Assembly: GCF_048403405.1 (NCBI RefSeq)
Contig: NZ_CP183129.1
From: Escherichia coli
GTDB taxonomy: Bacteria; Pseudomonadota; Gammaproteobacteria; Enterobacterales; Enterobacteriaceae
DNA: 64,000 bases
Reading direction: 5' to 3' (one strand)
Shown here: positions 1 to 15,342 of the stretch, piece after piece
Layout of the letters: each line of letters opens with the position of its first letter
Numbering within the stretch: position 1 is the first letter of the stretch
Translations under genes and position numbers: made by a program
The notes under the pieces: model-generated
What the model was told of the DNA's origin: nothing
What the model saw: the letters and a program-made list of their open reading frames with translations, nothing else
Databases searched by the model: none

Positions 1-2
1 AT

Positions 3-551
3 CCGGTCAGCGATAACGCGGCGCTGACTGGGTTAAGTAAGCTTTTCCGGCACATTCAACCCGCCGTGAACGATCCTCAGGATCTGCGCGCAAAACTGGA
101 AATGCTGTGGGCGTCTTACTATGGCGGCGTAGCGATAACCCATGCGGGCACGCATCTCGTTCATGCGCTCTCCTACCCGTTAGGTGGCAAATATCATCTG
201 CCGCATGGCGTCGCGAATGCCATCTTGCTGGCGCCGTGCATGGCGTTTGTTCGCCCCTGGGCGGTCGAGAAATTTGCCCGGGTCTGGGATTGCATTCCCG
301 ATGCGGAAACCGCCCTGAGCGCGGAAGAAAAATCTCATGCCCTGGTGGCCTGGCTACAGGCATTAGTCAATCAACTCAAGCTACCCAACAATCTCGCGGA
401 TCTCGGCGTACCGCCAGAGGATATTGCCTCTCTTAGCGAGGCGGCACTGAACGTGAAGCGCCTTATGAACAATGCGCCGTGCCAGCTTGATCTACAGGAC
501 GTACAGGCCATTTACCAAACACTGTTTCCGCAACATCAATTTAAGGAATAA
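3..551 (+). CDS. Iron-containing (group III) alcohol dehydrogenase family protein, C-terminal ~182 aa; 5' end lies beyond the left window edge
   Basis: Frame is open from nt 3 with no stop before the track's GTG at 66. Contains HALSYPLGGKYHLPHGVANAILL, the His-rich metal-binding segment typical of Fe-ADHs (FucO/YiaY/EutG-like). Stop lies 3 nt before the next ATG. Confidence 0.8.
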   Translation, partial: PVSDNAALTGLSKLFRHIQPAVNDPQDLRAKLEMLWASYYGGVAITHAGTHLVHALSYPLGGKYHLPHGVANAILLAPCMAFVRPWAVEKFARVWDCIPDAETALSAEEKSHALVAWLQALVNQLKLPNNLADLGVPPEDIASLSEAALNVKRLMNNAPCQLDLQDVQAIYQTLFPQHQFKE

Positions 552-554
552 ATC

Positions 555-1442
555 ATGCCGAAAACCATTGAAGGTGTATTAACCGCCATCGTCACCCCGT
601 TTACCGCGACCGGCAGTCTGAATATCCCGGCGTTAAAAGTGCAGGTGAATCGTCAACTGGAAGCGGGTAACGCGATTTTTTGCGGCGGCACCAACGGCGA
701 GTTTTTTGTGTTGAATGAACAGGAGAAGCTCAGCGTTACGCAAACCTGCGTGGATGAAGTGGCTGGTCGTGCGCCGGTCGTGGCACACATTGGCGAGATC
801 TCGACGCGCGAAACGATTCGTCTGGGTCAGCAGATTGAAAAACTTGGCGTAGATGCTGTGTCGGTCATTACCCCTTACTTCGTACCGCTGAAACAGGAAG
901 AGTTGATTGCGCATTACAGCGCAATTGCCGACGCGCTGAGCATTCCGATGTTTCTCTATAACATCCCGGCCCGCACTGGCAATACGATCCAGCCGGAAAC
1001 CGCGCGTGCTCTGGCGTCGCATCCCAATATCATTGGGATTAAAGACAGCGCCGGAAGCGACGAAAGCCTGAAGGGTTTTCTCGATGCTGTGCGCAACATT
1101 GACGGCTTTAATGTACTCAACGGCCCGGATTCGCTGATCCATAAAGGGTTTGTCGAGGGGTGTTCAGCCTGTATCTCTGGGCTCGCCAACGTCGCACCGC
1201 GGGAAATCAATGCTATCTGGTCTCGCGTCCATGCCGGTGATATTGAAGGGTCTTATGAAGCACAGGAGAGTGTAACGGGCCTGCGTACCGACCTTTATAA
1301 AGTAGCGTTCTCCCCGGCTGCGGTGAAAAAAGCGTTGCAGCTTATGGGGCATGATGTTGGTGATAGCCGCTACGCGGTTAATTTCACGCCTGAACAGATC
1401 AGCGAGATTCAACAAATTATTCGTCATTATAACATTAATTAA
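555..1442 (+). CDS. DapA/NanA-family class I (Schiff-base) pyruvate aldolase/lyase
   Basis: 295 aa. Motifs GGTNGEF, VITPYF, YNIPARTGN and IGIKDSAG (putative Schiff-base Lys) align with the DHDPS/N-acetylneuraminate lyase family. AAGGA RBS precedes the start, which follows the ADH stop closely. Confidence 0.85.
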   Translation: MPKTIEGVLTAIVTPFTATGSLNIPALKVQVNRQLEAGNAIFCGGTNGEFFVLNEQEKLSVTQTCVDEVAGRAPVVAHIGEISTRETIRLGQQIEKLGVDAVSVITPYFVPLKQEELIAHYSAIADALSIPMFLYNIPARTGNTIQPETARALASHPNIIGIKDSAGSDESLKGFLDAVRNIDGFNVLNGPDSLIHKGFVEGCSACISGLANVAPREINAIWSRVHAGDIEGSYEAQESVTGLRTDLYKVAFSPAAVKKALQLMGHDVGDSRYAVNFTPEQISEIQQIIRHYNIN

Positions 1443-1501: not shown

Positions 1502-2260
1502 ATGTTTTTGTGGTTTATGCAGCCAGATATCTGGCTCACTTTAATTACCCTCACCTTTCTGGAAATTATTCTTGGGGTGGATAATATTATTTTTCTTTCA
1601 CTGGTGGTGGCAAAACTTCCGTTATCACAACAAAATATGGCGCGTAAACTGGGTTTAAGCTGCGCGATGATTATGCGGATATTATTGCTGATATCCATTG
1701 CGTGGCTTTCACATATTACCCAGCCGCTTTTTACCGTGCTGACGCTGGAGATTTCGTTCCGCACGTTGATTCTGCTCGGGGGCGGGCTGTTCCTGATTTA
1801 TAAAGCGATACAGGAGATACGCGAAGAGCTGTCGCCCGCGCAGGAAGACGAACATGGCAGCGGATCGCGGCAACTGTCGTTGTGCGGTGCCATCGTACAG
1901 ATAATGCTGCTCGATATCGTGTTTAGCCTGGATTCGGTGATCACCGCCGTCGGCCTTTCTCAGCATATATTTATCATGATTGCCGCCGTAATGATTGCCG
2001 TCGGTGTCATGATGTTTGCGGCGAAAACAATTGGTGATTTCGTTAACGCCACGCCGTCAATAAAAATACTGGCGTTAACCTTTTTATTATTTGTCGGTGT
2101 ATTGCTGGTTGCCGATAGTCTCAACATTCATATTGCCAAAGAGTATCTCTACTTCGCGATATTTTTCTCATTAAGTGTTGAGACACTCAATATTATCCGT
2201 GAAAGAAGAAATAAAAAAGTTTCGACATTGATCGAAACGCATGAATCGCACTCGCATTAA
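1502..2260 (+). CDS. TerC-family integral membrane protein (YgdQ-like)
   Basis: 252 aa and multi-TM. LEIILGVDNIIFLSLVVAKLP and IVQIMLLDIVFSLDSVITAVG are the duplicated TerC-family signature and closely resemble E. coli YgdQ as I recall it. AAGGA RBS. Confidence 0.8.
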   Translation: MFLWFMQPDIWLTLITLTFLEIILGVDNIIFLSLVVAKLPLSQQNMARKLGLSCAMIMRILLLISIAWLSHITQPLFTVLTLEISFRTLILLGGGLFLIYKAIQEIREELSPAQEDEHGSGSRQLSLCGAIVQIMLLDIVFSLDSVITAVGLSQHIFIMIAAVMIAVGVMMFAAKTIGDFVNATPSIKILALTFLLFVGVLLVADSLNIHIAKEYLYFAIFFSLSVETLNIIRERRNKKVSTLIETHESHSH

Positions 2261-2295: not shown

Positions 2296-3465
2296 ATGTC
2301 TGTAGCCCTTATTCGTGACGGCGTCATCCGTCCATCCGAAAACGATTCGCATGTGCTTACCGCCATGCTGCCCTCGTCCTGCCCACAAAACCACGCGGCG
2401 AATATTCTGCCTTTGCCGGATGGCGCGTTAATGTGCGTCTGGTTTGCGGGAACGCAGGAAGGTATTGCCGATATTTCTGTCTGGGGATCGCGATTGCCCG
2501 CTGGCGGGATGCAGTGGAGCGATGCGGTCAAACTTTCCCACGATGACACGCGTTCAGAGCAAAACCCAGTGCTGTTTCTCGCGCCGGATAACGTGCTGTG
2601 GCTGCTATGGACCGCACAAATATCCGGGAATCAGGACACCGCCATCGTCCGCTACCGTAAGTCAGACGACCTCGGACAAACCTGGGGCGAGATTGCCACG
2701 CTGCTCGATAAACCCGGCACGTTCATTCGCCAGCCGATCACGGTGCTTGATAACGGCAACTGGCTGCTGCCCGTCTTTTATTGCCGTACCCAACCCGGTG
2801 AAAAATGGGTCGGCAATGATGATATCAGCGCAGTGAAAATTTCCGCTGACGGTGGTCACTCCTGGCGCGATGTCGTGGTGCCGCAAAGTCTCGGCTGCGT
2901 TCATATGAATATCACAATGCTGCACGACAGTACGTTGGTTGCTCTCTTTCGAAGCCGTTGGGCAGACAACATCTATATCAGCCATTCAGTGGACAACGGC
3001 GAGAGTTGGTCGGTGCCGCAAGCTACCGAATTGCCCAACAACAATTCGTCTATTCAGGTAACGACGCTTGCCAGCGGCGAACTGGCGCTGGTGTACAACG
3101 CGATGAGTGCGGCAGGCGCAGTAGAACGTCGCGCGTCGCTTTATGACGAAATCGACGATGGCGACGACAGCCGCAAAGAACCGACAGCCGTCGGACGCTC
3201 CGCTTTCTGGGGGGCCCCACGCGCGCCGATGACGGTAGCGATTTCTGCCGATGGTGGGAAAAGCTGGCCGTGGCGGCGCAATCTCGATGAAGGCGACGGC
3301 TACTGCATGACCAACAATTCCCTGGAAAAGCTAAATCGTGAGTTCTCCTACCCCAGCATCAAACAAAGCCCGGACGGTACGCTACATATCGCTTACACCT
3401 GGTGGCGTCAGGCCATCAAGTACGTGCGCATCTCCCCCGAGTGGGTTAAGGGGCAGGCATCATGA
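2296..3465 (+). CDS. BNR/Asp-box repeat sialidase-fold protein (exo-alpha-sialidase family), no signal peptide
   Basis: 389 aa. Four Asp-boxes (S-x-D-x-G-x-[ST]-W): SDDLGQTW nt 2662-2685, SADGGHSW 2842-2865, SVDNGESW 2986-3009, SADGGKSW 3244-3267. N-terminal V-I-R-P resembles the sialidase RIP motif. The N-terminus is hydrophilic, with no leader or lipobox. Confidence 0.8.
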   Translation: MSVALIRDGVIRPSENDSHVLTAMLPSSCPQNHAANILPLPDGALMCVWFAGTQEGIADISVWGSRLPAGGMQWSDAVKLSHDDTRSEQNPVLFLAPDNVLWLLWTAQISGNQDTAIVRYRKSDDLGQTWGEIATLLDKPGTFIRQPITVLDNGNWLLPVFYCRTQPGEKWVGNDDISAVKISADGGHSWRDVVVPQSLGCVHMNITMLHDSTLVALFRSRWADNIYISHSVDNGESWSVPQATELPNNNSSIQVTTLASGELALVYNAMSAAGAVERRASLYDEIDDGDDSRKEPTAVGRSAFWGAPRAPMTVAISADGGKSWPWRRNLDEGDGYCMTNNSLEKLNREFSYPSIKQSPDGTLHIAYTWWRQAIKYVRISPEWVKGQAS

Positions 3466-3932
3466 TTATCGGTAATCTCAACCATTTGTCGCTGGCGGGG
3501 CTTCCCGCCTGGGTGAGAAATATTCTGCTGTGCCCGGAGTGTTCGTTATCGGCGTTATCCGCCAGAGAGGACGGTCGCTGGCAACCTGAAGGATGTCGGT
3601 GGTTCTGCACGCTGGGAACTTCAGACACGCAACCCGCCGAACTCCGCCATACGGAGTATCACCATCTGTGGGCCGATATCCAGGTGGTGATTACTGGTTG
3701 TGAGGGCATTAATGCGGGAACGCGGCCCATCGCTCGCGAAAACGATGAAGAACGTAAGCCCGATCTGTTTATCGCCCCATCCCCTGAAAACAGTGTCGCC
3801 ATCACTCTACACCCCGGTGATTTCGCCGTCTTTATGCCTGAGGAACCTCACCAGGCGCTGTGCGCGATTGGCGCGGCTACGTCAGTACGCAAAGCGGTCT
3901 TTAAGGTACCGCGCGACATGCTGGAAGCCTAA
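3462..3932 (+). CDS. YhcH/YjgK/YiaL (DUF386) family protein
   Basis: 156 aa. GDFAVFMPEEPHQA and HTEYHHLWADIQVVI parallel GMFAVFMPGEPHKP and ELHEQYIDIQLLL of E. coli YhcH (recalled). Its ATG overlaps the upstream stop (ATGA), implying translational coupling. Confidence 0.8.
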   Translation: MIIGNLNHLSLAGLPAWVRNILLCPECSLSALSAREDGRWQPEGCRWFCTLGTSDTQPAELRHTEYHHLWADIQVVITGCEGINAGTRPIARENDEERKPDLFIAPSPENSVAITLHPGDFAVFMPEEPHQALCAIGAATSVRKAVFKVPRDMLEA

Positions 3933-3945
3933 AAGGAGAGAAAAA

Positions 3946-5226
3946 ATGACAATGGAAATGATCCTGGCATTAGGAATACTGGTCCTGATGATCGTGCTGA
4001 TCATGTCGGACAAAATGCCATTTGGCGCACCGCCACTGCTTGCGTGTTTATTGCTGGTTGTCTCGGGACTTTCGACCGTTCAACAGGCTTTTGCCGGATT
4101 CGTCAATCCAAGCGTGGTGATGATTGCAGGGTTTATGGTGGTCATGGCAGCGCTACAAAAAACCCGGCTTATCAGCAACGTTAAATCTGCGATGATAAGC
4201 CTGGTCAATAAAGGCAGTTACCGCAGCTACGGGCTGTTGTTAGTCATTGTTATGCTGGGTGCCAGTCTTGCAGGCACCGGCGCGACCGGTTATTACGTGC
4301 TGATTCTGTCGCTGGTATCCACCATTCCGTACAGTAAAAAGCTACCAACATCGAAATTAATGATGCCCCTGGGATTTGCCACCAACCACCCGCTTCTTCC
4401 TATCAATCTCGCGCTTCTCTTTGGCGTTACGGCGACCGTACTCGAAACCGCGGGTTTTCATCAGGAGATTTCGATGGGGCGCTTTGCGCTGGTGAATCTC
4501 ATCATGTCAGCGGCGTTCCTCGCATGGAGTCTTATTGCCTACCGTTTTCTTCCGGATCATCCCATTGCGGATGCTTCCGAGGATGCGCTGGCGGCACGCG
4601 AGGAAACGTTTAACGCCCTTCCTGCCTGGAAAGAATATTGCACTATTGCCGCATTCGCTGTCAGCGTTATCGGCATGATGCTAATGAACATTCTGGGAAA
4701 TATCGCCTTCGTTATTCCGGGTCTTGCGGGTGCGTTTGTTCTGATGATCGATGTACTGGACTTTAAAGAAGTTCGCGATCATATGGGAGCGCCGGTCATT
4801 TTAATGATGGCGGGGGTGATCGGTGTAGCTGATGCACTGGCGGGCACCGGCTTTACGGCGATGGTTGGCGATGCCGTTGCAGGTGTGCTCGGTTCTGGCG
4901 TCTCACCGTTTGTATTTATTGTCGCCTTTGCTTTGCTTACCAGTACCTGCGCCACCTTCACGGGTTCGAATATGGGGTCTGTTTATATTTTTGCCCCCAT
5001 CGCCATTGCCGCCTGTACCAGCCTTGGGCTTAACCCGACCGCTGCAGCGATTGCGGTGGTGATTTCAGGCTGGAACGGCGGCTATATGCCTATTGACGGA
5101 ATGCCAGCCATGATCCTCGGAATGGGGAAATACAAACTTCCCGAATTCTGGGTGTTCTCTGTACCAATGTATCTCATCCGCATTCTGGCGCTTTGTGCAG
5201 GCGCTGTTTTTATCTTCCCAATGTAA
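3946..5226 (+). CDS. Ion-transporter superfamily anion permease (ArsB/NhaD / citrate-transporter-like), 426 aa
   Basis: Highly hydrophobic multi-TM protein. I chose the start at ATG 3946, behind a strong AAAGGAGAG RBS. The track's 3700 start overlaps the YhcH-like gene out of frame and encodes a basic, non-membrane leader. Confidence 0.75.
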   Translation: MTMEMILALGILVLMIVLIMSDKMPFGAPPLLACLLLVVSGLSTVQQAFAGFVNPSVVMIAGFMVVMAALQKTRLISNVKSAMISLVNKGSYRSYGLLLVIVMLGASLAGTGATGYYVLILSLVSTIPYSKKLPTSKLMMPLGFATNHPLLPINLALLFGVTATVLETAGFHQEISMGRFALVNLIMSAAFLAWSLIAYRFLPDHPIADASEDALAAREETFNALPAWKEYCTIAAFAVSVIGMMLMNILGNIAFVIPGLAGAFVLMIDVLDFKEVRDHMGAPVILMMAGVIGVADALAGTGFTAMVGDAVAGVLGSGVSPFVFIVAFALLTSTCATFTGSNMGSVYIFAPIAIAACTSLGLNPTAAAIAVVISGWNGGYMPIDGMPAMILGMGKYKLPEFWVFSVPMYLIRILALCAGAVFIFPM

Positions 5227-5314: not shown

Positions 5315-7261
5315 TTACTTTTTGATTTCATACAGCGGCGTTTGACCCGCCACGACATGGCCCTGAGCTTTAATGATCAAGCCGCTGAAATCGTCGATAT
5401 TGCTGCAAACCACCGGGCTAATCATCGAGCGGGCGTTAGCGTTCAGGTAATCCAGATCCATTTCCAGAATCGGTTGTCCTGCGCTTACCTGCGCGCCCTC
5501 TTCCACCAGACGTTTAAAACCTTTACCTTCCAGCGCTACGGTGTCGATACCCATATGGACGACGATCTCCGCGCCTTTTTCGGTTTCCAGGCAGAACGCG
5601 TGGTTGGTATTGAAGATTTTCACGATTGTCCCTGCGGCTGGTGATACGACGATTTTATCTGTCGGTTTCACCGCCACACCGTCACCCACCGCTTTGCTGG
5701 CGAATGCTTCGTCAGGAACCTGATCCAGTGCCACAACATCACCGGTAATCGGCGATACCAGCTCCGCGACAGACACCGCGTTTGGTATAGCCTGCGGTTT
5801 TGCTACAGGCGCGGCAGTTGCAGGCGCAGTTTCAGCTGACGTAGCGGCTACCGGACCACGGGCAACAACTTTCTTCATTGCATCGCCAATGGATTCCGCT
5901 TTCGCGCCAACAATCACCTGAATAGTCTGTTTGTTCAGTTTCACTACCCCAGAAGCACCCAGCCGTTTACACATCGCATCGTTGACGCGAGCCGAGTCAA
6001 CCACGGTCAGGCGCAGACGAGTAATACAGGCGTCAATTGCTTTCAGGTTGTCAGTGCCGCCAACCGCAGCAATATAGTTGGTCGCCAGTTGATTGAGGCC
6101 TTCTTCAGTGTTGCTGTTGGCTTCTTCAGTAACGATCTCATCTTCTTTATCTTCACGACCCGGCGTTTTCAGGTTGAACATGCGGATAACCAAACTGAAC
6201 ACCACGAAGTAGATAGCGAAGAAGACAACACCCATCACCAGCAGCATCCAGACGTTCTGGCTGGCGGCCGGCAGGTTATACATCAACGCGTAGTCGATAG
6301 CCCCCGCAGAGAAGGAGAAGCCCGCGTGGATACCCAGCAGCGTTGCCACAAACAGGCTGATACCGGTCAGCAGTGCGTGCAGGAGGTACAGCAGCGGCGC
6401 AAGGAACATGAACAGGAATTCCAGCGGCTCAGTCACACCGGTCAGGAACGCAGTAACAGCAACAGAAAGCAGCATACCGCCAACCATCGGACGACGCTCT
6501 TTCGGTGCTGCAAAGTACATCGCCAGCGCCGCACCCGGCAGACCGAACATCATGATCGGGAAGAAGCCGGACATGAACATCCCCGCGGTGCCGTCACCGG
6601 CATAGAAGCGGTTGATGTCACCGTGGAAAACCGTACCCGCCGCGTTGGTGAATTCACCAATCTGGAACCAGGCGATGGTGTTCAGTACCTGATGCAGACC
6701 GGTTGGGATCAGCAGACGGTTGATGAAACCAAAGATACCGGAACCCAGCGCGCCCGCAGAAACGATCCACTCGCCGCCTGCATGGATAGCGTGCTGTACC
6801 GGCGGCCAGACGTAACCAAAAATGGCCGCCAGCACCAGGCAGAAGAAGCCGGTGGCAATCGGCACAAAGCGTTTGCCGCCGAAGAAACTCAGGAAGTCCG
6901 GCAGTTTAATATCGGACCAACGGTTATAAGCTGCGCCACCAACCAGACCGGTAATGATACCCGCCAGTACACCCATGTTAATTTCCGGGTTGATGGTCAC
7001 CATCGCTTTGGTTAACACAAAGTAACCTACCGCACCCGCCAGCGCCGCCGCACCTGCGCTGTCTTTCGACCAGCTGGATGCCACACCGATGGCGAAGATT
7101 AATGCGAGGTTATCAAAAATCGCACCGCCCGCCTGGGCAATAAACGCAACGTTAAGTAAATCTGGCTGACCGAATCGCAGCAACAGCGCCGCCACCGGCA
7201 GCACCGCGATAGGGAGCTGTAACGCCCTACCGAGTCGCTGGAAAAAACCTAAAATATTCAT
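5315..7261 (-). CDS. nagE: PTS N-acetylglucosamine-specific EIICBA component
   Basis: 648 aa. Full-length recognisable NagE sequence (MNILGFFQRLGRALQLPIAVLP...), divergent from nagB. Confidence 0.97.
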   Translation of the reverse strand: MNILGFFQRLGRALQLPIAVLPVAALLLRFGQPDLLNVAFIAQAGGAIFDNLALIFAIGVASSWSKDSAGAAALAGAVGYFVLTKAMVTINPEINMGVLAGIITGLVGGAAYNRWSDIKLPDFLSFFGGKRFVPIATGFFCLVLAAIFGYVWPPVQHAIHAGGEWIVSAGALGSGIFGFINRLLIPTGLHQVLNTIAWFQIGEFTNAAGTVFHGDINRFYAGDGTAGMFMSGFFPIMMFGLPGAALAMYFAAPKERRPMVGGMLLSVAVTAFLTGVTEPLEFLFMFLAPLLYLLHALLTGISLFVATLLGIHAGFSFSAGAIDYALMYNLPAASQNVWMLLVMGVVFFAIYFVVFSLVIRMFNLKTPGREDKEDEIVTEEANSNTEEGLNQLATNYIAAVGGTDNLKAIDACITRLRLTVVDSARVNDAMCKRLGASGVVKLNKQTIQVIVGAKAESIGDAMKKVVARGPVAATSAETAPATAAPVAKPQAIPNAVSVAELVSPITGDVVALDQVPDEAFASKAVGDGVAVKPTDKIVVSPAAGTIVKIFNTNHAFCLETEKGAEIVVHMGIDTVALEGKGFKRLVEEGAQVSAGQPILEMDLDYLNANARSMISPVVCSNIDDFSGLIIKAQGHVVAGQTPLYEIKK

Positions 7262-13931: not shown

Positions 13932-14008
13932 GGCTACGTAGCTCAGTTGGTTAGAGCACATCACTCATAATGATGGGGTCACAGGTTCGAATCCCGTCGT
14001 AGCCACCA
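13932..14008 (+). tRNA. metT: tRNA-Met (CAU), elongator
   Basis: 77 nt ending in CCA, with anticodon loop CTCATAA. Identical to the copy at 14324-14400. Confidence 0.95.
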
Positions 14009-14016
14009 TCTTTTTT

Positions 14017-14101
14017 GCGGGAGTGGCGAAATTGGTAGACGCACCAGATTTAGGTTCTGGCGCCGCAAGGTGTGCGAGTTCAAGTCTCGCCTCCCGCACC
14101 A
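14017..14101 (+). tRNA. leuW: tRNA-Leu (UAG)
   Basis: 85 nt class II tRNA with a long variable arm, anticodon TAG and a CCA end. Confidence 0.93.
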
Positions 14102-14124
14102 TTCACCAGAAAGCGTTGTACGGA

Positions 14125-14199
14125 TGGGGTATCGCCAAGCGGTAAGGCACCGGTTTTTGATACCGGCATTCCCTGGTTCGAATCCAGGTACCCCAGCCA
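14125..14199 (+). tRNA. glnU: tRNA-Gln (UUG)
   Basis: 75 nt, TGGGGTATCGCCAAGCGGTAAGGCA..., with anticodon stem CCGGT/ACCGG and loop TTTTGAT (UUG). Confidence 0.93.
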
Positions 14200-14233
14200 T
14201 CTTCTTCGAGTAAGCGGTTCACCGCCCGGTTAT

Positions 14234-14308
14234 TGGGGTATCGCCAAGCGGTAAGGCACCGGTTTTTGATACCGGCATTCCCTGGTTCGAATCCAGGTAC
14301 CCCAGCCA
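14234..14308 (+). tRNA. glnW: tRNA-Gln (UUG)
   Basis: Identical 75-nt copy of glnU. Confidence 0.93.
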
Positions 14309-14323
14309 TCGAAGAAACAATCT

Positions 14324-14400
14324 GGCTACGTAGCTCAGTTGGTTAGAGCACATCACTCATAATGATGGGGTCACAGGTTCGAATCCCGTCGTAGCCACCA
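14324..14400 (+). tRNA. metU: tRNA-Met (CAU), elongator
   Basis: Identical 77-nt copy of metT. Confidence 0.95.
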
Positions 14401-14448
14401 AATTCTGAATGTGTCGAATATGTTCGGCAAATTCAAAAACCAATTTGT

Positions 14449-14523
14449 TGGGGTATCGCCAAGCGGTAAGGCACCGGATTCTGATTCCGGCATTCCGAGG
14501 TTCGAATCCTCGTACCCCAGCCA
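14449..14523 (+). tRNA. glnV: tRNA-Gln (CUG)
   Basis: 75 nt with anticodon loop TTCTGAT (CUG). The T-arm differs from glnU/W. Confidence 0.93.
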
Positions 14524-14560
14524 ATTTATTCAAGACGCTTACCTTGTAAGTGCACCCAGT

Positions 14561-14635
14561 TGGGGTATCGCCAAGCGGTAAGGCACCGGATTCTGATTCC
14601 GGCATTCCGAGGTTCGAATCCTCGTACCCCAGCCA
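14561..14635 (+). tRNA. glnX: tRNA-Gln (CUG)
   Basis: Identical 75-nt copy of glnV. Confidence 0.93.
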
Positions 14636-14757: not shown

Positions 14758-15342
14758 ATGAATTATCAGCTATTCTCACCATTCTTTACCAAAGTCATCA
14801 TGCTGCTTATCGCATTGCTTTGCATTGTTCTTGCCTCATTTGGTATTTCTGCCCCATTTTGTTACATCGTTTTTATCGGCATCATTTTCCCCGTTGCTAT
14901 ATCAATGCGCATACACCGTCTCAATGAAACAGGAACAGCACTCACACTAACCGAAAGCTCACACTGGATCGTTTACATCCATGGTTTTCCAGCTGAGGAA
15001 CAACGTGAAGTTTTGAAAAACCCCTGTTTCTGGTCAACAGAAAGAGTGAAACAGTTTTTCCTTCGCGGTCTTGCTGGCAAGGTTATTCTTCAACTCGCCT
15101 GCCTTGCACTTCTGGTCAATGAATATTTCCGCTCAACACCAGGTTCCGGGCAAGACTTACTCGCAGCAGGCGTGCTGTTTTTTATTTTGTTTTCGATAAG
15201 CAAAAATTTCTGGACGATGTATCTTCTCGCCACAGATAAATGGCAGTGCGAATCCCTGACCACCACCAGCGGTAGCCTTTGGTATCAGGGATTTCTGTGT
15301 AAAGGAAACAGAAGAGTTACGCTGTTTTCGCGGCTGGTGTAA
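14758..15342 (+). CDS. Hypothetical four-TM membrane protein (194 aa); no family recognised
   Basis: AAGGA RBS 7 nt upstream of the ATG. Two N-terminal and two central hydrophobic helices, with a ~50-aa soluble loop and a Cys/Trp-containing C-terminal tail. AT-richer than its neighbours. Ends 6 nt from the convergent ubiF stop. Confidence 0.55.
   Translation: MNYQLFSPFFTKVIMLLIALLCIVLASFGISAPFCYIVFIGIIFPVAISMRIHRLNETGTALTLTESSHWIVYIHGFPAEEQREVLKNPCFWSTERVKQFFLRGLAGKVILQLACLALLVNEYFRSTPGSGQDLLAAGVLFFILFSISKNFWTMYLLATDKWQCESLTTTSGSLWYQGFLCKGNRRVTLFSRLV

Follow-up and report, generated by a model that had tools for sequence, protein, structure and literature searches.

Sialidases of glycoside hydrolase family 33 (GH33), among them NedA of Micromonospora viridifaciens (1EUR/1EUS), NanH of Salmonella (2SIL) and human Neu2, carry the first arginine of their catalytic triad in an (F/Y)RIP motif of blade 1 and pair a nucleophilic tyrosine with a glutamate. 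Other proteins of this fold work differently: GH181 Amuc_1547 of Akkermansia muciniphila (8AXI, 8HLS) uses a rewired catalytic set (His349/Gln350/Gln367 with a retained Glu218) and has only two canonical arginines, and the GH143 N-terminal domain of BT_1020 from Bacteroides thetaiotaomicron (5MQS, 'Sialidase BT_1020') is a sialidase-like propeller that frees 3-deoxy-D-lyxo-hept-2-ulosaric acid (DHA) from side chain D of the pectin domain rhamnogalacturonan-II (RG-II). At the level of pathways, the nan system of Escherichia coli (NanT, NanA, NanQ/YhcH) joins a transporter, a YhcH-family protein and a DHDPS-family aldolase for the use of a 2-keto-3-deoxy sugar acid, and DtnK and PdxA2 reportedly form a D-threonate catabolic module, a description credited to Zhang and colleagues (PNAS 2016, 113:E4161). 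Here we analysed a stretch of 64,000 nucleotides of E. coli DNA (contig NZ_CP183129.1 of assembly GCF_048403405.1; hereafter the window) and within it a sialidase-fold gene at 2296..3465 on the plus strand, whose product is a cytoplasmic and divergent member of the sialidase superfamily and not a canonical GH33 enzyme. The operon partners of this gene carry most of the functional information, and we propose, tentatively and at slightly less than an even chance by our own estimate, that the protein acts at the head of a nan-like pathway whose substrate is an acidic 2-keto-3-deoxy sugar, most likely DHA or its small glycosides.

Fold and active site of the protein

The gene encodes 389 amino acids from an ATG that has a GGAG motif (2285-2288) 7 nucleotides to its 5' side, and its stop codon overlaps the start of the following YhcH-family gene in the ATGA at 3462-3465. 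An in-frame stop codon lies at 2242-2244 and position 2296 is the first start codon after it in the list of open reading frames (ORFs), so that an N-terminal extension or signal peptide is impossible. The N-terminus itself (MSVALIRDGVIRPSENDSH...) has neither a hydrophobic core nor a lipobox. A preliminary description of this DNA, made from the letters alone, had called the protein cytoplasmic for want of a signal peptide or lipobox, and the search for an upstream in-frame start, which the stop codon leaves without a candidate, bears this out.

The Pfam BNR_2 domain matches residues 43-365 (E = 8.7e-64). Read from the translation, exact Asp-boxes occupy S123-W130, S183-W190, S231-W238 and S317-W324, and the FSYPS segment covers residues 350-354, all of them precisely where they had been placed before (aa 123, 183, 231 and 317 for the boxes); a further, degenerate Asp-box ends at W74. 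The structure model has a strand at residues 21-24, which would close the propeller by completing blade 6. The BNR_2 signature and a six-bladed beta-propeller put the protein in the sialidase superfamily, and the best structural matches in the fold search were GH33 sialidases, including the cytosolic Neu2, in agreement with the six-bladed sialidase propeller that had been predicted. Sequence identity to the GH33 enzymes named above is only 13-19%. A single-sequence search of the solved structures gave no useful match (E = 0.12) and a profile was needed, the best sequence-profile match among solved structures being Amuc_1547 (E = 2.6e-15; variant 7.9e-17). RefSeq and other sources label the protein 'sialidase family protein' or 'exo-alpha-sialidase'.

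Two distant homologues with 32-33% identity (P0217 and P0196) have N-terminal extensions longer than that of the E. coli protein, and the extension of P0217 is hydrophobic and signal-peptide-like; unlike the cytoplasmic enterobacterial clade, the wider family may include exported members.

Active-site residues were mapped with a profile of 24 diverse homologues (33-57% identity) aligned to two sialidases and to all PDB chains. The sequences of the two reference sialidases, Salmonella NanH (2SIL) and that of M. viridifaciens (1EUR), were checked to be identical to the deposited chains, and the map was built from hmmsearch alignments to both and to Amuc_1547, together with conserved spacings. 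Conservation was scored in three sets of homologues (n = 32 at 76-99% identity, n = 57 at 60-99% and n = 24 at 33-57%, given in this order below). An hhalign comparison of the family profile with Salmonella NanH was not used, being out of register by entire blades or, in global mode, unsuccessful, and an N-terminal-only profile search aimed at the RIP region returned partial alignments only.

The position of the RIP arginine is taken by His33 (codon 2392..2394, plus strand, as are all codons below). In an ungapped extension of the profile alignment N32-H33-A34 falls on Y-R68-I of the M. viridifaciens sialidase, the spacing from H33 to G43 equals that from R37 to G47 in Salmonella NanH, and the histidine is invariant (32/32, 57/57 and 24/24). 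The V-I-R-P motif at aa 10-13, previously taken for a RIP-like first arginine, does exist, but its R12 is variable (arginine in 22/32, 16/57 and 9/24) and the assignment gives way to His33; the first-triad arginine of GH33 is thus absent from its place in blade 1. A second histidine, His203 (2902..2904), stands where GH33 has the glutamate that activates the nucleophilic tyrosine: it aligns with E260 of M. viridifaciens, E231 of Salmonella NanH and the glutamate of the VEA motif of Amuc_1547, and residue 203 is histidine in all close homologues and histidine or glutamine in the distant ones.

The second and third arginines of the triad are present by alignment. Arg219 (2950..2952) falls on R276 of M. 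viridifaciens, R246 of Salmonella NanH and the matching arginine of Amuc_1547, and Arg309 (3220..3222) on R342 of M. viridifaciens and the matching arginine of Amuc_1547, 8 residues ahead of the fourth Asp-box as in both known enzymes. Arg309 is kept in 22/24 distant homologues and R219, R221 and R371 each in 23/24, so that Arg221, two residues past Arg219, is conserved to the same degree as the latter. The nucleophile position is taken by Tyr352 in FSYPS (3349..3351), which aligns with Gln350 of Amuc_1547 and is tyrosine in 22/24 distant homologues. Tyr352 precedes Thr368 by 16 residues, as Y370 precedes the next-strand residue E386 in M. viridifaciens. Its probable counterparts are accordingly Y370 and, in Salmonella NanH, Y342, through the Amuc_1547 alignment and spacing, and the role suggested earlier for the FSYPS tyrosine agrees with this placement. 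By the same spacing Thr368 would fall on E386, which buttresses the first arginine in the M. viridifaciens enzyme. In the acid/base loop of blade 1, E55 is invariant in all three sets and D59 is mostly conserved, and the canonical acid/base aspartate is placed next to E55 by the NanI alignment or next to D59 by that of M. viridifaciens. Compared with GH33, the protein therefore has histidines for the RIP arginine and for the glutamate partner of the tyrosine, a threonine for the buttressing glutamate and, probably, the Glu55/Asp59 loop in place of the acid/base aspartate. Of the canonical active site envisaged in the preliminary description, Arg219, Arg309 and Tyr352 are kept, whereas the RIP arginine and the glutamate are lost to His33 and His203.

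A candidate stand-in for the first arginine is Arg371 (3406..3408), which in the profile alignment is two residues away from the counterpart of Gln367 of Amuc_1547. The authors of the Amuc_1547 study equate Gln367 with the first triad arginine and put Gln350 at the tyrosine position (PMC12018670), and by this alignment Arg371 may complete a re-wired arginine triad. The catalytic set of GH181 itself, His349/Gln350/Gln367 with Glu218, is not that of the protein described here. The absence of the triad or of the tyrosine had been named beforehand as the mark of a non-catalytic propeller; judged as a classic sialidase the protein fails on its first arginine, for which Arg371 might substitute. Residues H33, E55, D59, Q89, N90, R145, H203, R219, R221, N248, R309, Y352 and R371 would lie on the active-site face, and according to the model the conserved arginines R86, R145, R219, R221, R309, R348 and R371 should all do so. 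So many arginines on this face suggest a substrate with more than one carboxylate.

The island between glnS and nagE

The sialidase-fold gene lies within an accessory island between glnS and nagE. In strain E2348/69 this island has nine genes: reading from glnS to nagE, the minus strand carries a DeoR regulator, a PdxA2-type 'D-threonate 4-phosphate dehydrogenase' and a 'D-threonate kinase' (DtnK), and the divergent plus strand an iron-containing alcohol dehydrogenase (Fe-ADH), a DHDPS-family protein, a TerC protein, the sialidase-fold protein, a YhcH-family protein and an SLC13 permease. The window starts inside the Fe-ADH gene; DtnK, the PdxA2-type dehydrogenase and the DeoR regulator, with glnS beyond them, lie to the left of it and were seen at the E2348/69 locus (L001 5247-8224). 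The right-hand boundary is nagE (5315..7261, minus strand), which belongs to the core genome.

The gene was found in 1047 of the 5426 complete E. coli genomes (19%) with at least 95% identity, always on the chromosome, and it is intact in 1046 of these carriers, which include sequence type 131 (ST131) and E2348/69. Carriers in the literature are CFT073, RS218, IHE3034, LF82 and avian pathogenic E. coli (APEC) strains. The island is mentioned, without function, in two papers; a 2026 paper reports a region GR6 (nagE..glnS) common to extraintestinal pathogenic E. coli (ExPEC) of group B2 and adherent-invasive E. coli (AIEC), gives no function for it and refers to a previous mention of a comparable cluster in Sinorhizobium meliloti (PMC12928451). 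The gene had first been viewed as a chromosomal one in an E. coli backbone and as an isolated oddity of this species. The chromosomal location holds, but the setting is an accessory island of about a fifth of the complete genomes, and the gene is one member of a conserved set of nine that RefSeq already calls a 'sialidase family protein'.

The partners of the gene resemble the nan system in their upstream half and the D-threonate module in their downstream half. The aldolase (555..1442, plus strand) is a class I pyruvate aldolase of the DHDPS/NanA family (Pfam DHDPS, E = 1.1e-61) with the motifs GTNGE, Y136-N-I-P-A-R141-T-G and G-I-K163-D-S of the class I machinery. It scores below the dapA equivalog (191 vs 206) and far below nanA TIGR00683 (114 vs 382), its nearest solved relatives are DapA enzymes, and it is 33% identical to E. 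coli DapA, R141 falling on R138 and K163 on K161; it resembles DapA more than NanA. In DapA, R138 binds aspartate semialdehyde, a C4 aldehyde-acid, by its carboxylate. The PARTG motif that includes this arginine is present in 65/68 cluster-linked copies of the aldolase, and one more has PVRTG. The YhcH/YjgK/YiaL (DUF386) protein (3462..3932, plus strand; Pfam DUF386, E = 2.2e-26) passes the broad family model TIGR00022 (97.3 bits, cutoff 45.5) and fails the NanQ model NF040884 (91.5, cutoff 160), which makes it by sequence a paralogue of the N-acetylneuraminate anomerase NanQ. Aldolase and YhcH-family protein are hence paralogues of the nan proteins, both below the equivalog cutoffs; orthologues of NanA and NanQ are not found in the island, and NanE and NanK are absent from it in E2348/69. 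In their place the downstream half consists of Fe-ADH, DtnK and PdxA2, and the sialidase-fold protein is an addition to the nan logic. DtnK passes the D-threonate kinase equivalog NF047819 (533.5 bits, cutoff 450) and PdxA2 the D-threonate 4-phosphate dehydrogenase equivalog NF002891 (680.3 bits, cutoff 583), the curated models for exactly the two enzymes of the D-threonate module, and the DeoR-family regulator is adjacent to them.

The remaining plus-strand genes are less specific in their scores. Fe-ADH is represented in the window by its 3' part (1..551); the full protein has 385 aa, its start being about 600 bp to the left of the window, and the complete gene is seen in E2348/69 at L001 8394-9551. 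It matches Pfam ADH_Fe_C (E = 1.4e-32), and its best NCBIfam equivalogs (ErcA, lactaldehyde reductase and 4-hydroxybutyrate dehydrogenase) gave 214-224 bits against cutoffs of 500-550, none of which was reached; it resembles aldehyde reductases of the last two kinds. The TerC-family integral membrane protein occupies 1502..2260 (Pfam TerC, E = 4.3e-46). The SLC13 permease (3946..5226), of the divalent-anion:sodium symporter (DASS) type, matches Pfam CitMHS (E = 1.7e-24) and Na_sulph_symp (E = 1.1e-12), scores below the TIGR00785 (DASS) cutoff and has no relative by sequence among solved structures. The ORF list starts its gene earlier, at a GTG at 3700 (508 aa), so that it would overlap the 3' part of the YhcH gene; the RefSeq start is the ATG equivalent to 3946 (426 aa; L001 12946), which fits the operon spacing better.

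Linkage outside E. coli was counted over 80 genomes of other species. In 67/80 the sialidase-fold gene is followed immediately by the YhcH gene; Fe-ADH, the DHDPS-family aldolase, DtnK and PdxA2 are present in 62-63/80 (Fe-ADH in 63/80) and the DeoR regulator in 60/80. The same enzyme set forms one operon in Priestia and in Pelosinus (Firmicutes), and a metagenome contig carries it around a 46% identical homologue with a tripartite ATP-independent periplasmic (TRAP) DctPQM transporter and a sigma-54 activator. The transporter is the part that changes. TerC and the SLC13 permease occur in only 11/80 loci (Escherichia, Klebsiella, Kluyvera and close relatives); elsewhere a sodium:solute symporter (SSF) gene takes the TerC position directly upstream of the sialidase-fold gene, with a short-chain dehydrogenase/reductase (SDR) downstream, and another distant homologue adjoins an SBP_bac_5 ATP-binding cassette (ABC) system. 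The swaps in other taxa thus comprise the SSF symporter, a major facilitator superfamily (MFS) permease, TRAP DctPQM and an ABC system. Carriers are mostly plant-associated or pectinolytic bacteria (Pectobacterium, Dickeya, Erwinia, Pantoea, Kosakonia and Phytobacter).

Some features of these loci stand apart. TerC and the SLC13 permease always occur together (11/11), and one may ask whether they act jointly. A likeness to SiaT was considered for the SSF symporter of other taxa and dropped, its solved relatives being only choline, urea and iodide carriers. An SDR gene lies near the sialidase-fold gene in most non-Escherichia clusters, after YhcH or beside the sialidase-fold gene itself (for example L075 11856-12569, L083 11827-12573 and L086 7109-7855); the E. 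coli island has none. In Pantoea rodasii (L049 6256-11853) and in the Pantoea loci L050-L057 the arrangement is LysR, SSF symporter, sialidase-fold gene and SDR, alongside which runs a divergent gene of the isocitrate/isopropylmalate-dehydrogenase family (Pfam Iso_dh; the family includes tartrate dehydrogenases); this reduced cluster may represent an alternative downstream route.

A proposed route for DHA and its alternatives

The scheme that we propose builds on several established points: the protein has the sialidase fold with the substitutions described above and is cytoplasmic, its gene is linked to the same partners across phyla, and DtnK and PdxA2 are assigned to their families. A pyruvate-yielding aldolase, followed by a reductase that feeds a D-threonate kinase, implies as substrate a C7 2-keto-3-deoxy dicarboxylate. 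By our own derivation, in the Fischer projection of DHA C4 points left, C5 left and C6 right, and cleavage between C3 and C4 gives pyruvate and D-threuronate; D-lyxo DHA would therefore yield D-threonate once the aldehyde is reduced, which matches the annotated substrate of the DtnK/PdxA2 module. The DapA-type arginine retained by the aldolase and the DASS carrier also point to a second carboxylate, DASS and TRAP being families known for carboxylates or dicarboxylates, although SSF, MFS and ABC variants occur as well. DHA is a rare sugar acid whose best-known occurrence is RG-II side chain D; there it is attached to galacturonate by a beta linkage and bears beta-L-arabinofuranose (Araf) on O5, and this side chain is released by heat alone. 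GH143 would share its proposed substrate class with the sialidase-fold protein, and the likeness between the two seems only distant. The suggestion of the preliminary description that the substrate could be a non-sialic ulosonic acid fits this gene context.

We infer which substrate is used, in which order the steps occur and what chemistry the sialidase-fold protein performs, and the pathway would run as follows. A carboxylate transporter (SLC13/DASS in E. coli; SSF, TRAP, MFS or ABC elsewhere) would import the substrate, and the sialidase-fold protein would bind the ulosaric acid through Arg219, Arg221, Arg309 and perhaps Arg371, Tyr352 with His203 and Glu55/His33 releasing or otherwise processing the free acid in the cytoplasm. 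The YhcH-like protein would then accelerate the interconversion of anomers and open chain, the DapA-like class I aldolase would cleave the acid to pyruvate and a C4 aldehydo-acid (D-threuronate), and Fe-ADH would reduce the latter to D-threonate. Finally, DtnK would phosphorylate D-threonate and the PdxA2-type dehydrogenase would convert the product to dihydroxyacetone phosphate (DHAP) and CO2, the whole gene set being under the control of the DeoR-family regulator. In comparison with the D-threonate module as described, the upstream operon of the island would make D-threonate internally from a larger sugar acid. Literature searches for DHA catabolism, for threuronate and for this gene combination found nothing relevant. 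For several products that B. thetaiotaomicron secretes while growing on RG-II (D-Kdo, 3-deoxy-D-manno-octulosonate, and two methylated sugars), a preprint of 2026 describes the pathways in other gut microbes as unconfirmed. Other entries into the route were rejected: a lyase acting on Araf-DHA would give a product that does not lead to D-threonate, and 3-deoxy-heptulosonate (DAH) would give a neutral tetrose, which Fe-ADH would turn into a polyol and not into the substrate of an acid-sugar kinase.

A bolder form of the proposal, which we regard as doubtful, is that the protein represents a new cytoplasmic glycoside-hydrolase family in which DHA ketosides would be cleaved by the Tyr/His pair with a re-wired Arg219/Arg309/Arg371 set. 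Such an enzyme would let E. coli of group B2 (uropathogenic strains, ST131 and the enteropathogenic E2348/69) and plant-rotting Enterobacterales use RG-II fragments freed by acid, heat or Bacteroides.

Several observations weigh against the DHA scheme. Several Pantoea loci hold, beside the sialidase-fold gene, only the symporter, the SDR and the LysR regulator, with no aldolase or D-threonate genes nearby, and many clusters outside E. coli add an SDR or a 2-hydroxyacid dehydrogenase that the scheme leaves unexplained. Genes for RG-II or pectin glycosidases were not found beside the clusters inspected in Pectobacterium, Pantoea, Erwinia and Priestia, whose flanks hold only regulators, unrelated transporters and oxidoreductases. 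The residue equivalences derive from profile alignments and spacing. Lastly, a DASS carrier suggests that small or free DHA is imported, in which case a glycosidase seems unnecessary, and this makes the step of the sialidase-fold protein the weakest link.

The same consideration favours the alternative that survives best, one that we consider unlikely but by no means negligible. Here the acid-sugar pathway would be the same and the protein would be no glycosidase, acting on an imported monosaccharide derivative; it might, for example, open a lactone of the dicarboxylic sugar, hydrate a 2,3-unsaturated form or catalyse an elimination of the lyase type. Acid/base roles would fall to His33, His203, Glu55 and Tyr352, and the charge of the carboxylates would be offset by the arginines. 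Import of a small dicarboxylate through the DASS carrier would fit this alternative, since it needs no glycosidase, and the two accounts share the linkage to the aldolase and the D-threonate genes.

The three further explanations are each less likely than the DHA scheme. Improbable, to our judgement, is a pathway for 3-deoxy-D-manno-octulosonate (Kdo) from lipopolysaccharide or RG-II side chain C, or for another ulosonic acid, with the protein as a cytoplasmic Kdo hydrolase. In the surroundings of enteric and plant-associated bacteria Kdo is much commoner than DHA, B. thetaiotaomicron secretes it, and Kdo hydrolases are sialidase-like (one is in BT1013). Aldol cleavage of Kdo, however, gives D-arabinose, for which Fe-ADH, the D-threonate kinase and the PdxA2-type dehydrogenase are not needed, and the second carboxylate indicated by the DASS carrier and by the aldolase arginine would find no counterpart. 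A little less probable again is a non-catalytic BNR propeller, either a binding or scaffolding protein or a decaying remnant, an idea for which the missing first arginine could be invoked. About 20 polar residues, which the strand topology would place on the active-site face, are nevertheless kept from Enterobacterales to Firmicutes, and the almost universal integrity of the gene among E. coli carriers, its translational coupling within an operon of enzymes and its linkage to the same enzymes across phyla all speak for a working enzyme. Least credible of all is a true cytoplasmic exo-alpha-sialidase acting on imported sialosides of N-acetylneuraminate (Neu5Ac) or 2-keto-3-deoxynononate (KDN), a reading in line with the database names, with the GH33 structural matches including Neu2 and with the proof from Amuc_1547 that sialidases can run on non-canonical residues, but opposed by the replacement of both the RIP arginine and the catalytic glutamate, by the failure of the aldolase and the YhcH-like protein against the NanA and NanQ equivalogs, by the lack of NanE and NanK, by a pathway end at a C4 acid and not at N-acetylmannosamine (ManNAc), by the mostly plant-associated carriers and by the fact that E. 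coli is regarded as sialidase-negative, lineages with this gene included.

Away from the island, the window holds seven tRNA genes downstream of asnB (13932-14635; Met, Leu, Gln, Gln, Met, Gln, Gln), of which E2348/69 has six, the extra one being a second tRNA-Gln(CTG). Between this cluster and ubiF lies a 194-aa ORF (14758-15342, plus strand) with hydrophobic stretches and no Pfam match, annotated as 'hypothetical protein' in strain GN02461; E2348/69 has no coding sequence annotated in this interval and its ubiF is about 670 bp closer.

Significance for E. coli and for the sialidase superfamily

This intact island, to which no function is assigned, is carried by roughly a fifth of the complete E. 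coli genomes, medically important B2 lineages among them. The automatic label 'exo-alpha-sialidase' could misdirect work on how E. coli forages for sialic acid, and sialidase names in databases should not be read as evidence that the species has a sialidase: the protein is a divergent member of the sialidase superfamily within a pathway not described in the literature searched, and it is no E. coli sialidase of the kind that would overturn the textbook.

If the DHA scheme is true, it would explain the purpose of the island. We know of no natural source described for D-threonate, and this compound would gain an internal origin. Consumers would also be identified, in the gut and in rotting plant tissue, for an RG-II sugar acid whose fate is undescribed in the literature that we found. 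The sialidase superfamily, in turn, would gain a catalytic variant with histidine in place of the first arginine and histidine in place of the glutamate.

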